64,000 nt of DNA from Salinispira sp. (GTDB lineage: Bacteria > Spirochaetota > Spirochaetia > DSM-27196 > Salinispiraceae), in assembly GCA_965602015.1 (NCBI GenBank), contig OZ271918.1, forward strand, positions 1,216,001 through 1,280,000, given 5' to 3'. Both the position numbers and the translations under genes were made by a program. Positions 14,784 to 19,902 of this stretch are shown piece by piece. Below the pieces are notes generated by a model. That model was not told the DNA's origin and ran no database searches. It saw only the letters and a list, made by a program, of their open reading frames with translations. Position 1 is the stretch's first letter. Each line of letters starts with the position of its first letter.

Positions 14784-15899
14784 ATGTCGACAATCAAATA
14801 TAACTTCGAAAAACTGATAGAGATTTTTCATTCCGTCCTGTGCCGATCAAAAGCCCTCCGGGCGGACCAATGGATTTATCACCTGATAATCAACCCCGGC
14901 GCCGGAGGATTTAATTTTGAAGGCATCCGTCAAAGCTTGGGGCGCAGCGAGCCAAAAGGCATTCGCATCCTGGATGAAACCAGCCGGGCGGCCATAGCCG
15001 GTCTGGATCCTTTATACAGTGCCCAGACTGTCGATATCCGGCTTCACCTGTCGGCATATCCCGATCACGCCGGCCTTCTGGCAAAAAGCATCGCGACGGA
15101 TTTTTATTCCGATGAGCGACGCCACATGATCATCAGTATCGGGGGGGACGGTACCCATAACGAAATTATGCAGGCCCTTCATACAGGTGTGAGCCAGTCA
15201 AAGTTGGCGCTTTGCCGGGTATTTCGCTTTCCCCTGGGCTCTGGCAACGACGGAGCCGATGCCTGGAAGCCGGAGGAAGCCTGGCAGCTGTTGATTGACG
15301 GTGCGGAACAGGGAAGGGCCGGGGCTTTGGAGATAAACAGCGCCGCTGGAGAGCAGTTTCACGCCTTTAATATTGCCAGCATCGGAGTTGACGCCCATAT
15401 CGTCAAAGTGACTAATCAGCTTAAAGACCGGCTTCCCGGTGATTTTTACAAGGTGGCCGCAGACCTCTCGGTCCCCTTCTATCCCGGTTTGTATCAGGTG
15501 GGTACCGCCCGCCTTTCCGGTGTGGATTTTGACGGTGAGCAGTTGGAGCACAGTTTCCGGCTGGGGCTGATAGCATTCGGGGTGAGCGGGATTCGAACCT
15601 ATGGTCACGGGTTGTGGATTCTCCCCGATCGGGAGAACATTTGCGCCATCGAACTGCGGAACCTTCTGACCAACATAAAAATGAAAAAGGAACTCTACCG
15701 CGCGAAACATGACCGATTGCCCTATGTTTCAATGTTCAGATCGGGAGACTTCACCTTTGAGTATGATTCTGCCATACCGATGGAACTGGACGGTGAAGTA
15801 AAAATGCTCTCGGCCGAGGATTTTCCCCTGTCCATACGGGTTATCGAGACGAATATACAGATGTACAGCGGAAAGGACCTGAGCGTCTATAAATCGTAG
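14784..15899 (+). CDS. Diacylglycerol kinase family lipid kinase
   Basis: IINPGAG, GGDGT, PLGSGND, ELDGE. Confidence 0.88.
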   Translation: MSTIKYNFEKLIEIFHSVLCRSKALRADQWIYHLIINPGAGGFNFEGIRQSLGRSEPKGIRILDETSRAAIAGLDPLYSAQTVDIRLHLSAYPDHAGLLAKSIATDFYSDERRHMIISIGGDGTHNEIMQALHTGVSQSKLALCRVFRFPLGSGNDGADAWKPEEAWQLLIDGAEQGRAGALEINSAAGEQFHAFNIASIGVDAHIVKVTNQLKDRLPGDFYKVAADLSVPFYPGLYQVGTARLSGVDFDGEQLEHSFRLGLIAFGVSGIRTYGHGLWILPDRENICAIELRNLLTNIKMKKELYRAKHDRLPYVSMFRSGDFTFEYDSAIPMELDGEVKMLSAEDFPLSIRVIETNIQMYSGKDLSVYKS

Positions 15900-16759
15900 T
15901 AGTGATGCTGCTTCACAAATCCCCTGAAGCCCGCGTCCATGACCTTTGATTCGTAGTTCATGTAATTGTCCGGATAGTGCATCAAAAAGGTCTTCGCGCG
16001 GATTTCCTGATGAAGGGTGCACAGATCGTCAAAAAACGCGTGGACTCCTCCGGGAAAAAACTGCACGTCGTGAAAGATGTGTTCGATGGGGTAGGTTTCG
16101 GTGATGTTTTCAATCATTTCCCGGTCGAATCGGGTATCGCCGGTAAACAGAATCCGCTTATCGATGATCAGCCCGGTGCTATACGCGCTGCGCTTCCAGC
16201 TCGGGGCATTGTCGGGGTAATGCATGGTGCGAAACAGCACTACGTTGAACCCCTTCCAGTCAATCTCCCAGGCGTCACGGTTCAAACTGCGCAGGCTTTT
16301 GGGACGGGTAACGTTCCAGTAATCCCGGAAATTCAGGAAGCGGTTGCCCTTTGATTCATTCCAGGCAGCTCCGCCCTTGAGGCTGTCATTCCACAGCAGC
16401 TTTTCGTATTCCTTGGTGATGACGATATTCGGTTTGCGCTTGGTGACATAGCGGCCCATGAGCAGAACCTCTTCAAGTCCGCCAATGTGGTCCGCATGCG
16501 AATGGGTAATGATGAAGTTTTCTATGTCCGTTACCGGCCTGCCGAGTTTTGACATTGCCTCGGGAGTGCGTGTTCCGCAATCGAGCATTATGTGCTGATC
16601 GCCCTTTATGAGCAGGTAATTATTCTGATAATGCTTCTTAGTGAATGCACTGCCGGTCCCCACCGGAAACAGGCTGGTTTCTCCGTTATTCGTCAGGCTG
16701 AGATCAGATGTTAGTTCGCGTATGTTCAAAAACGAATCCTTCAAAAACAAGCTGCACAA
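15887..16759 (-). CDS. Metallo-beta-lactamase fold hydrolase (phosphodiesterase/RNase Z-like); exact start uncertain
   Basis: GTGSAF, LDCG, THSHADHIGG, FTGDT, LMHY. Confidence 0.85.
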   Translation of the reverse strand: MCSLFLKDSFLNIRELTSDLSLTNNGETSLFPVGTGSAFTKKHYQNNYLLIKGDQHIMLDCGTRTPEAMSKLGRPVTDIENFIITHSHADHIGGLEEVLLMGRYVTKRKPNIVITKEYEKLLWNDSLKGGAAWNESKGNRFLNFRDYWNVTRPKSLRSLNRDAWEIDWKGFNVVLFRTMHYPDNAPSWKRSAYSTGLIIDKRILFTGDTRFDREMIENITETYPIEHIFHDVQFFPGGVHAFFDDLCTLHQEIRAKTFLMHYPDNYMNYESKVMDAGFRGFVKQHHYYDL

Positions 16760-16915
16760 AGATGTTTACCGGTGCGAATTGTATACCAGTATATGTTAAA
16801 TTTATTCAATTACCCAATACTTACCGTACAGTATAACCCGAAAGCAATAAAATCCAAATAAAAACGCGTGGGTGAAAATATAGAAATTCCCAGAAGTTTT
16901 TGCAAATTTTTCGTA

Positions 16916-18164
16916 AGTGCCCCCAAAACAGCTGATCGAATCAACATAACTCTTTTGCCAGTAGTCTTCTATGACACGATTACCAGTTCATAGGAGATTA
17001 GCATGGCATTAATCCCTCGTTTCTGTCCGTACTCGGACTGTTCTCAGCATCATCGCGACAGAGAATCAAGCCGGTGCTGGTTTGTCCGAAACGGCCACTA
17101 TCACTGCCGCCGCCTCGGTTCTTCCCAGCGCTATCGCTGCAAGCATTGCCGTCGATACTTCTGCGAAAGCGCGTTCCACCTCGATTATCGCGCACATCAT
17201 CGCCTCGATTACCGGCGCATCTTCTCTTCAATCAACTCGGCCTCCGGCATTCGCGATATTGCCCGGGAGTTTTATGTCACCGACAAGGTCATTCTCAATC
17301 GGCTGAGCCGATTGTCCCGTCAGGCAATCGCTGCCATGGCCCAGTTATCGAATGATCATACAATCGATGAGGATATTGCCGTTGATGGGTTTGAAAGCTT
17401 TGTGTATAGCCAATACTGGCCGAGCAACTTCACTCTCGCGGTGGGTTCCGACAGCCAGGTTGTCTATGCGTGCGACTATGCGCAGATGCGGCGTAAAGGG
17501 CGGATGACCCCCGCACAAAAGCGCCGGCGCGATGAGCTCAATCGCCAGTATCCTATTGCAGGGGGACAAATTGCGCGATCTTTCCGGGATGTGATGAATA
17601 CCATTCTTCCCCGATGGAAGGCTTATTCATCGAAGAGGCCATGCTATCTCTTGAGCGATGAAAAACTCGAATACCGCCGTGAGCTGTGCGCTCATCGGGA
17701 CTGGGCGGCGTTGGAAAATGCAGGGCGGGTTATCCATCACCGAACCTCATCAAGGGTGGTCAGGACCACTGAGAACCCCCTGTTTCCGGTGAATTACCTG
17801 GACCGGGAGATACGAAAGGATCAATCCTGTCATGTCCGCCAGAGCGTGCAGTGGTCAAAATCGGTGAACAACAGCATGGAGCGGATGATGATTTACATCG
17901 CCTATCATAACCTGCTCAAGCCGTATCGGATAAACGGACGAAACGATATCAGCCATGGTGAGGTTGCGGGGTTTGACCGAAGGCGGGTACTCACGTTGAC
18001 AAAAAGCATGTTTACACAGCGGGCCTTCGTTCATCATCTGGTGCTGGACATCAGCCAATGGAAGACCTGGCACCGGATCTGGAAGACGCCGGTGAGTGCG
18101 CTAAAGATCGACCTACCCGATTATGCGGTGGCCTGAGGGGCGGAAATCAGCTGTTTTGGGGGCA
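16916..18164 (+). mobile_element. IS1/IS1595-like insertion sequence; right IR interrupted by the IS1111-type element, with its last bases displaced to 19470-19471
   Basis: IRL AGTGCCCCCAAAACAGCTGAT 16916-16936; IRR ATCAGCTGTTTTGGGGGCA 18146-18164; one transposase-like ORF between them. Confidence 0.85.
17003..18136 (+). CDS. Transposase with Zn finger, HTH and RNase H-like DD(D/E) domain
   Basis: CPYSDC...QRYRCKHC Zn finger, GIRDIAREF HTH, VDGFES / LSDEK / NYLDREIR; flanked by IRs. Confidence 0.75.
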   Translation: MALIPRFCPYSDCSQHHRDRESSRCWFVRNGHYHCRRLGSSQRYRCKHCRRYFCESAFHLDYRAHHRLDYRRIFSSINSASGIRDIAREFYVTDKVILNRLSRLSRQAIAAMAQLSNDHTIDEDIAVDGFESFVYSQYWPSNFTLAVGSDSQVVYACDYAQMRRKGRMTPAQKRRRDELNRQYPIAGGQIARSFRDVMNTILPRWKAYSSKRPCYLLSDEKLEYRRELCAHRDWAALENAGRVIHHRTSSRVVRTTENPLFPVNYLDREIRKDQSCHVRQSVQWSKSVNNSMERMMIYIAYHNLLKPYRINGRNDISHGEVAGFDRRRVLTLTKSMFTQRAFVHHLVLDISQWKTWHRIWKTPVSALKIDLPDYAVA

Positions 18165-18190
18165 TATCTGAAAGCGGTGCCCCCCCGCAA

Positions 18191-18339
18191 GAGTTTTCAT
18201 TGTTCTATTACAAAAATTCTGCAAATCGGTTTTGTCCGAGTCATATCTCCGCCATCCACGTGGCATGAAAATGTCCTTCCAGGGGTGTCGCAATCACTTT
18301 GCACAGCCTCGTATTCGCGCTGTAGCCCCAAAAACGCGC
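18191..18339 (-). ncRNA. Predicted bridge/seek RNA of the IS1111-type element (boundaries approximate)
   Basis: Segments matching the target (18325-18335, 18295-18300) and the circular donor junction (18261-18270, 18241-18248), in loop-and-stem order. Confidence 0.75.
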
Positions 18340-19392
18340 TTACCCCTGTCTGGACAAACCCGCTAATGCAGGATCTTTGTAATGCTGTTCTTTCTGCAAT
18401 ATCCAAAATATTGCTTCTGCTAAGTGCCGTGCCACGGCGATTATTGCAACCTTATGATTACGTTTAGTACGAACTCTCTTGTAGAGTTTTACCGTATGTC
18501 GGTTCGCCCAATTTCTTTGATTAAGACAGGTTACATTAGCTGCTTCAGTAAGTGCCCACTTCAAGTATCGATTACATGCTTTCGATGTTCGACCATAATG
18601 AGTTTTACCTCCGCTCGAGTGAACGCGCGGCGTTGTACCACAGTATGATGCAAAATGTTCAGCGGTCTTAAAGCGATGTATGTCTCCAATTTCATGCACA
18701 ATGACTGCGCTGAGAATAAATCCGATCCCGGGAATGGATTTCACCAACTTCATTTCAGCATTTTCATCAAACGCTTCATGCATTCGTTGTTCGCAGTCGG
18801 TGATAGATTGCTTAATAAACGCGAGATTATCGAGCTTGAGTTTCATCATGGTGCGGGTATGCTCGGGGAGTTTTGGCATTACCTTCTTCATGGCTTCTGT
18901 ACCTGCTTTTCCGAACAGATCGCTCACATCATTGAATCGAAACCCATATTTCTCGAACCCGGCATGAATTTGGTTCTTTTCACGTATCAACTCCTGAACG
19001 AACTGCATCCGGGTTCGATAGAGTTCTCGTTTATCACGCAATTCTCCTGGTGGAATCCACACAGTAGGCAGTGTGCCTGCTTTTTGAAGTTTATTGAGAC
19101 CTTCAGCATCGAGTTTGTCAGTTTTGTTAAACATGGCCATCATCAATTTTGACTTACCGGCATGTACCAGCAAGGGGTTCATGCCGGCCTCCTCAATCTC
19201 ATCCACAATCCAGTACCAACTTCCGATCGTTTCAAGTGCGACTTCCTGTCCCGGCTCAAATTGTTGGAGAAAATCACGAATACACCCGTGAGAATGTTCT
19301 ATGCGCTGTGAGGATTTCCTTCCATTTTCGTCCTCAATTGCAGCCACGGTATACCGTTTATGGCTGTCGAGGGATATAATAGTATTACTCAT
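18340..19392 (-). CDS. IS110 family DEDD recombinase/transposase
   Basis: SLDSHK, ALETIG, KTDKLDA, SIPGIG, SYCGTTPRVHSSGGK (catalytic Ser), IAVARHL. Confidence 0.96.
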   Translation of the reverse strand: MSNTIISLDSHKRYTVAAIEDENGRKSSQRIEHSHGCIRDFLQQFEPGQEVALETIGSWYWIVDEIEEAGMNPLLVHAGKSKLMMAMFNKTDKLDAEGLNKLQKAGTLPTVWIPPGELRDKRELYRTRMQFVQELIREKNQIHAGFEKYGFRFNDVSDLFGKAGTEAMKKVMPKLPEHTRTMMKLKLDNLAFIKQSITDCEQRMHEAFDENAEMKLVKSIPGIGFILSAVIVHEIGDIHRFKTAEHFASYCGTTPRVHSSGGKTHYGRTSKACNRYLKWALTEAANVTCLNQRNWANRHTVKLYKRVRTKRNHKVAIIAVARHLAEAIFWILQKEQHYKDPALAGLSRQG

Positions 19393-19524
19393 TTGGTTGT
19401 CCTCCTCCGGTATTTAATATAGACCCTGACTGGCAGGATCTCGGGGGAGGCACCGCTTTCATACCATCACTTTCTGATTTCTTCCCCGTTGGCGGCGCTC
19501 TTCAACCCGTGATAGCATCGCTTT

Positions 19525-19902
19525 ATGTCTACTAAATCCGAAAGCGGCGCCGAGGCCCCGCAGATCGAAGAATTCATTCAAAAGCGCGAGCGGCTCAATG
19601 ATATTGTGTTGGAGCAGGGGACTCTGGTCACCAAACGCTTTATCAATCTGGACGGTCAGGGATACAAGGCCGGTGCGCTTGATGAGAAAACAAAGGAACT
19701 CATGGGCCTGGTTGCCTCATTGGTTTTGCGATGCAACGATTGCATCTTGTATCACATTCTGCAGGCTAAAAAATGCGGAGTGACCCGGGAAGAGTTTACC
19801 GAGGCTTGTGATATCGCCCTCATCGTCGGGGGTTCCATCGTGATTCCTCATCTGAGGGAGGCCTATGGTCATTGGGAGTCGCTGGAGAGCGATGACGCAT
19901 AG
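19525..19902 (+). CDS. Carboxymuconolactone decarboxylase/AhpD family protein
   Basis: GALDEKTKELMGL, RCNDCILYH (CxxC). Confidence 0.88.
   Translation: MSTKSESGAEAPQIEEFIQKRERLNDIVLEQGTLVTKRFINLDGQGYKAGALDEKTKELMGLVASLVLRCNDCILYHILQAKKCGVTREEFTEACDIALIVGGSIVIPHLREAYGHWESLESDDA

Follow-up and report, generated by a model that had tools for sequence, protein, structure and literature searches.

Bridge and seek RNA systems were described in 2024 (PMC11208160, PMC11187229). The bridge RNA of IS621 is encoded upstream of the recombinase gene and has two loops with four guides that abut a 2-bp CT core, and its targets are repeat sequences (PMC11208160, PMC11208158). The IS1111-group seekRNA elements ISEc11, ISPa11, ISKpn4 and ISPst6 have subterminal repeats, a long downstream non-coding region, a junction promoter and a fixed orientation, and in their RNAs the match to the top strand lies 5' of the match to the bottom strand (PMC11187229). 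The use of a donor-binding loop in elements with subterminal repeats and a downstream RNA is unsettled, as one group has presented three examples judged by eye and the other found an RNA with target guides only to be sufficient; ISEc11 transposes with such a short RNA (PMC11187229).

Here we describe an IS110-family element in a window of 64,000 nucleotides, by which we mean the whole stretch of Salinispira sp. DNA that was analysed. By every feature tested the element is an IS110-family bridge recombinase, and it is well supported that we are dealing with a new member of a known mechanism and not with a new system. We put the probability at roughly 0.86 that its 3' non-coding end encodes a two-loop bridge RNA acting like the RNAs of IS621 and the IS1111 group, a reading drawn from sequence comparisons. 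A bridge or seek RNA downstream of the recombinase gene had been proposed in a preliminary description of the locus, and this predicted layout is backed by covariation and by three conserved stems.

The element shares with the IS1111-group elements all of the traits named above, the junction promoter as a prediction, and with IS621 the two predicted loops, the four guides next to a 2-bp core and the repeat-sequence targets. It differs from IS621 in the downstream position of the RNA, in its CA core and in its long subterminal repeats, and the similarity between the two proteins is confined to the C-terminal domain (E about 1e-11). Unlike in the IS1111 group, the spacing of the perfect repeats over the junction is 12 bp (8+4 instead of 7+3), and the protein carries GTTP rather than GL-P. 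The locus is of value as a clean test case for donor-loop use in elements with subterminal repeats and a downstream RNA, as a compact recombinase with a CA core, distant from IS621 and ISCro4, and as a case of a mobile element that occupies the ends of another family, its nine natural sites charting the tolerance to mismatches.

Ten copies of the element are present in the genome, two of them in tandem at one site, which gives 9 independent insertion sites. Nine copies are 1,305 bp long; the tenth carries an insertion of another IS and has lost part of its sequence. The 10 left and 10 right ends are each invariant exactly up to a TG dinucleotide, which is found at both boundaries in 10/10 copies. 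Because the flanking sequence outside the TG varies, we take TG (CA in the RNA sense) to be the core, and the core and both junctions thereby stand as first described. In gene orientation all copies start with TG-ATGGTA followed by an 18-bp subterminal repeat, and finish with the repeat followed by GATA-TG. The repeats are perfect (18/18) in 8 of the 10 copies, and the terminal extensions measure 8 and 4 bp from the perfect repeat, or 7 and 3 bp only when one mismatched outer pair is counted. The non-coding regions are about 175 bp (3') and about 75 bp (5') long. Between the tandem copies (C1:3399400-3402680) lies a duplication of 263 bp, the start of which coincides with an off-target TG that is joined to the right end of the element. 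The IS that interrupts one copy is 1.31 kb in size (C1:1707042-1708353), has 6 further copies and is also found next to the ends of two miniature elements, close to 1300104 and 2613098. At E<=1e-60 the IS110 element was not found in 57 of 60 relatives, both congeners included, one of which (G001) is only 83% complete. We searched the two congeners for an orthologous empty site; the neighbouring gene is split across contigs in G001, with no insertion context, and was not found in G002.

The protein matches PF01548 at 40.7 bits (cut-off 29), PF02371 above its cut-off and NF033542 at 227 bits (cut-off 140). Residues D9, E54, D92 and D95 are invariant in 54/54 aligned homologues and S260 in 53/54, and the segment of the C-terminal Tnp domain with the catalytic serine aligns with IS621. 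With all three models above cut-off and the catalytic residues kept, the earlier assignment to the IS110-family recombinases holds. In its subterminal repeats, downstream RNA and guide order the element appears to work like an IS1111-group member; for this comparison we used subterminal inverted repeats of about 11-17 bp with extensions of 7 and 3 (or 6 and 3) bp. We have not filed it in that group because its protein lacks the GL-P motif and is 24% identical to that of IS4321, and because its ends are spaced 8+4. Where IS4321 has the L of the GL-P----S(T)G motif, 43 of the 54 proteins have T and 11 have V. The best plasmid matches (31-32% identity) are to unnamed haloarchaeal IS110s, and a quick tree placed the protein on a long unplaced branch. 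A search of the literature, with ISfinder, figures and supplements outside its scope, found no report of this clade, of a bridge system with a CA/TG core or of a structure of the IS1111 type; those sources may list the clade. The features of the locus are listed in Table 1.

Table 1. Features of the IS110-family element, its predicted RNA and the surrounding host element (positions in the window).
Feature	Position	Strand	Remarks
Host element	16916..18164	+	about 1.25 kb; 21-bp terminal repeats; 12 copies
Host protein ORF, 377-aa zinc-finger/HTH/DDE-fold	17003-18136
Target left half	18153..18162	+	inner part of the right terminal repeat of the host element
Right core dinucleotide CA	18163..18164	+
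IS110-family element	18165..19469	-	1,305 bp with one core copy counted; intact; 10 genome copies
Right subterminal inverted repeat	18169..18186	-	17/18 in this copy; 4-bp extension 18165-18168
-35-like hexamer TTGCGG	18185..18190	-	predicted junction promoter; 18-nt spacer and TATGAT -10 only across joined ends
Predicted hairpin 3' of donor guides	18226..18239	-	single-sequence folds; not recovered in consensus fold
Right donor guide and handshake	18240..18248	-	guide AGATA-TG 18248-18242; handshake AC 18241-18240
Donor-loop inner stem-loop GCCA/TGGC	18251..18264	-	5' arm previously taken as guide
Left donor guide, corrected register	18266..18274	-	ends on core CA; here 5 Watson-Crick and 2 wobble pairs of 9
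Target-binding loop	18289..18338	-	outer stem 18338-18335/18292-18289, inner stem 18324-18319/18307-18302; RNAalifold and pair counts, 44 RNAs
Right target guide and handshake	18293..18300	-	guide AAAG-TG 18300-18295; handshake AT 18294-18293
Left target guide	18325..18334	-	ends on core C, without core A; -1 to -6 covary
DEDD recombinase, 350 aa	18340..19392	-	PF01548, PF02371, NF033542; D9, E54, D92, D95, S260 intact
Left subterminal inverted repeat, 18 bp	19444..19461	-	6-bp extension 19462-19467
Left core dinucleotide CA (TG in gene orientation)	19468..19469	+
Target right half	19470..19473	+	CT = displaced outer tip of host repeat

To quantify covariation between the RNA and the DNA, we gathered 161 homologous loci with 45-58% identity. 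Of the 162 loci obtained with the window included, 145 contained the complete gene and sufficient flank. Both end motifs were present in 117, the RNA motifs allowed 113 to be anchored, and the last set formed 46 clusters at 80% protein identity (45 with the query left out). The end motifs used to choose the homologues were modelled on this element (117/145 kept), so the conservation of the core is partly by construction; an unbiased repeat search recovered the same ends in most homologous loci. Shuffled pairings of RNA and flanks served as the control, and all guide positions listed here as covarying had p<=0.001. The same pattern was observed for 23 clusters at 70% identity, with p about 0.01-0.03 at the weakest positions. 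As a check on independence, we examined 21 disjoint nearest pairs and counted a difference as followed when the RNA tracked the DNA in both members. The preliminary description had named covariation as a check on its guides; it bore out both target guides and the right donor guide, and not the segment proposed as left donor guide.

Positions -1 to -6 of the left target guide equalled the element's own flank in 45/45, 41/45, 39/45, 31/44, 25/43 and 21/43 clusters (0.25-0.62 in shuffled pairings), and positions -7 and -8 showed no covariation in the homologues. The pairing first described, of 18335-18325 with 18153-18163 at 10/11, is retained and covaries, except that G18335, then counted as part of the guide, is a conserved stem base. 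The core A is missing from this guide also in 6/45 other clusters. For the right target guide, positions -1 to -4 were matched in 44, 42, 44 and 41 of the 45 clusters (shuffled 0.28-0.51). Its placement as AAAGTG at 18300-18295 was correct and it covaries, but the full 6-nt match occurs in this copy only, with AG+TG alone invariant over the 9 sites. In the nearest pairs, RNA followed DNA in both members at 34/41 right-target and 39/75 left-target differences. The guide with the top-strand match (18334-18325) lies 5' of the one with the bottom-strand match (18300-18295).

A handshake in the target loop had been suggested from the identity of 18293-18300 with 19466-19473, and this segment indeed tracks the flanks of each homologue. 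The second handshake base of the target loop matched the donor in 33/45 clusters (shuffled 0.57) and the first handshake base of the donor loop matched the target in 36/45 (shuffled 0.63), with only 2/14 donor-loop handshake differences followed in both members of nearest pairs. In this element the number of handshake pairs rises from 1 to 3 upon exchange, as has been reported for IS621 (PMC13626964), and pairing after exchange exceeded that before it in 43/46 clusters.

The sole variable base of the right donor guide matched the element's own end in 45/45 clusters (shuffled 0.66), and all 3 differences in nearest pairs were followed in both members; the segment AGATATGA at 18248-18241 had been quoted correctly and covaries with that end. 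The left donor guide gives the weakest signal of the four. In the register that ends on the core, positions -2 to -5 matched in 25, 30, 30 and 39 of 45 clusters (shuffled 0.40, 0.31, 0.32 and 0.72), and among 19 differences in nearest pairs 4 were followed in both members, 10 showed other changes and 5 were unchanged. The guide of this element is among the two poorest of the 46.

These data bear on the possibility that only the target loop guides insertion, that the protein binds the subterminal repeats at the donor and that the donor-like segments are vestigial or structural. A short seekRNA sufficed for ISEc11 (PMC11187229), long subterminal repeats are conserved across the clade, and the signal of the left donor guide in the independent pairs is weak, all of which would fit. 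Vestigial segments would not track the ends of the element, however, and here the right donor base agrees with its own end in every cluster and in each independent switch, and positions -2 to -5 of the left donor guide covary; we consider this possibility unlikely. In the alignments both donor guides and the handshake bases covary position by position, whereas ISEc11 transposes with its short RNA (PMC11187229). With such data from the clade, the donor-loop question comes down to a simple mutate-and-rescue assay.

The left donor guide had initially been placed elsewhere, as TTTCATGCCA at 18270-18261, which does match 19457-19466 at 9/10. This register does not covary: TGCCA at 18265-18261 matched in 3/45, 10/45, 15/45 and 2/45 clusters, equal to the shuffles, and the RNA was unchanged at 17/19 donor differences in independent pairs. 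Instead, GCCA pairs with TGGC (18254-18251) in 44/44 aligned RNAs, an alignment that omits two clusters with long inserts; all 4 pairs are 100% paired, with 13 compensatory changes at the fourth. With wobble pairs allowed, the core register scored 2.89 against 1.95 of 4 and the initial register 2.20 against 2.09 (p=0.007), a small excess that may stem from relatedness. By the homologue comparison, the covarying left donor guide is 18274-18266 and not 18270-18261.

The initial segment could still serve a second mode, in which 18270-18261 would open the inner stem and read either the left end, at a point three bases inward of the core, or off-target sites, with CA at 18262-18261 as the core. The 9/10 match in this element compares with 3-7/10 in the other 45 clusters, and the sole aberrant junction in the genome (the tandem copies with the 263-bp duplication and TG start) matches the segment at 6/8, a score that 0.4% of genomic CA sites attain; its match to the core-register guide is only 1/8 and that to the left target guide 4/8. 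Set against this, the junction is single, was noticed after the fact and was compared with three guide segments; the segment shows no covariation in homologues, and a compensatory A-U pair preserves the inner stem in this element. A best off-register match of at least 9/10 occurs in about 0.3% of non-cognate RNA-donor pairs, which for 46 elements gives an expectation of about 0.14 chance outliers, and a circle closed at the inner CA predicts a left end 3 bp shorter, which was seen in 0/10 copies. A second mode of this kind is improbable. Core recombination with incomplete pairing, as in the half-match or direct-transfer off-target events reported for IS621 and CazIS110, could also give an aberrant tandem junction, although the junction here matches neither canonical left guide (bioRxiv 10.64898/2026.08.31.748434; bioRxiv 10.1101/2025.10.25.684509). 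We likewise give little credence to a broader version, of a divergent and widespread IS110 clade with an IS1111-like layout and a donor loop under selection, living on an unnamed DDE family that leaves no target duplication, in which the donor loop would have two usable registers and the second, exposed by the open inner stem, would close on an off-target CA and capture flanking DNA, with the 263-bp duplication as its footprint.

The three stems of the two-loop form together had 98% of cells paired, a value reached in 0/500 shuffles, and slid controls gave 21-40%. On its own, the single sequence does not fold into this form (z=-0.82), and the fold energy is -50.5 kcal/mol when free compared to -39.7 kcal/mol with the guides held open; since the RNA alone does not reach the two-loop fold, protein binding or trimming is assumed. 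A closing stem of the donor loop was not established, with p=0.02 in one of four windows and 0.08-0.55 in the others. When the full-length end is folded in silico, the left donor guide is sequestered by a complementary segment of the 3' tail (18194-18201), in which base 18200 differs between the 10 copies. A search of Rfam gave no match at E<=1 within 16700-19700. The weak folding of the single sequence would fit guides that are chance matches in a non-coding tail, with the sites found by protein-DNA recognition, but concerted changes of guides and flanks are seen in many lineages, among them sister pairs whose targets differ, and we regard chance as very improbable.

Under the preferred two-loop reading, and by analogy with other systems, the ends would join at the TG/CA core into a circle, which would create a sigma70-type promoter across the junction, and a transcript through the recombinase gene would yield the RNA. 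The predicted motif scores 8/12 in this element, with the -10 spanning the core. In 46/46 clusters the best -10 overlaps the core or the left extension, in most of them together with TTGAC as the -35 (the scan covered the junction region). A scan for promoters and terminators in the linear element gave results at chance level, and no circle-junction joint was found in four runs of one sample, possibly the one from which this genome came, kept as contigs, which drop rare forms. A synaptic complex with strand exchange at the core would then form, as proposed from work on IS621 and the IS1111 group, in which, to judge from the covariation, the target loop would pair with both target strands around the core and the donor loop with the joined ends through its two guides. 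The gain in handshake pairs upon strand exchange would favour insertion. The excision step is uncertain for the whole IS110 family because recent preprints argue for copy-out and half-match routes.

The target is the terminal repeat AG-TG-CCCC(C/G)AAAAC, which is borne by a DDE transposon family and by miniature elements derived from it and is used in a single orientation. All 9 independent sites read AG-TG-CCCC in one orientation, and repeat ends are occupied in 8 of them. With up to 2 mismatches, the motif TGCCCC(C/G)AAAACAGCTGAT was found 126 times in the genome; it bounds the 12-copy, 1.25-kb host element and 30 elements of 133-145 bp, and also occurs in 4 short palindromes and on its own. 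The 21-bp end is common to the DDE element with its 12 copies and to about 100 derivatives, miniature or solo, and among 60 relatives the repeat was found in one, a congener. The 9 sites comprise 3 host-element ends, 3 miniature-element ends, 1 solo end, 1 end of a 110-bp element of a second subfamily and 1 degenerate end. There was no preference for the autonomous host IS, as 3/23 host-IS ends compared to 4/51 other AG-preceded ends were occupied (Fisher p=0.67). The earlier statement that the RNA is programmed against the host IS end is true insofar as such ends are hit, but is too narrow, the target being a repeat end present 126 times.

The AG before the core was present in 7/7 occupied canonical repeat ends versus 67/116 empty ends (Fisher p=0.04). 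Beyond the AG, A was found at -3 in 4/9 sites and at -4 in 4/9, not above the empty sites (p=0.44 and 0.20). The right target guide selects AG-tipped ends and tolerates mismatches at its outer two bases. The genome contains no perfect target; the base opposite the guide U at -5 is G at 4 sites, C (wobble) at 4 and A at 1. About 70 landing sites, mostly non-genic, would be left, and the tip of an occupied host end is presumably damaged.

Insertion into the terminal repeat of another transposon has precedent in the IS110 superfamily, as IS4321 and IS5075 are said, in work by Partridge and Hall from 2003, to target the terminal repeats of Tn21-family transposons. The present element differs from these two in protein sequence (24% and 23% identity) and in that its host is an unnamed DDE element with most sites in non-autonomous derivatives. 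Judged by eye, most other homologous clusters target REP-like CTCGCAATGAC/CTCGGAATGAC repeats, and one cluster (L026, L041, L064, L147, L153 and L156) lies in tRNA T-arm/anticodon-like sequence with GGTTCGAATCCC and GGATTTGAACC flanks.

In the predicted model (pLDDT 92), the host protein has an RNase H-like integrase/transposase (DDE) fold, with Z 11.4 to ISCth4 (rmsd 6.8, 234 aligned) and Z 11.1 to the MMTV integrase core (rmsd 3.1, 155 aligned). It has no match in Pfam and scores below the cut-off of the IS1 transposase model (NF033558 at 35 bits, cut-off 100). Most of its 127 homologues are unnamed, and the named ones come from spirochaetes. No target-site duplication was detected, the longest direct repeat being 0-1 bp in 11/11 paired copies at four boundary offsets. 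The host element is possibly an undescribed IS family. Its flanks are A/T-rich and often mirror each other.

The 30 miniature pairs (e.g. C1:34348-34490, 296121-296263 and 2669033-2669175) are 141-145 bp long, with one of 133 bp, and have near-perfect 21-bp ends and interiors that are only 42% alike at the median. Palindromes of 42-47 bp and 35 solo ends are also present, and comparable miniature pairs occur in congener G001. A second host subfamily with ends TGCCCCNAAGCTTGTT (C1:1709279-1709388, 2757300-2760735) consists of one interrupted autonomous copy, miniatures of about 110 bp and solo ends, and one of its ends is occupied by the IS110 element. Adjoining the host element in the window is a metallo-beta-lactamase-fold gene (15887-16759, minus strand) that scores above the cut-off for the Apyc1 anti-Pycsar family (114 bits).
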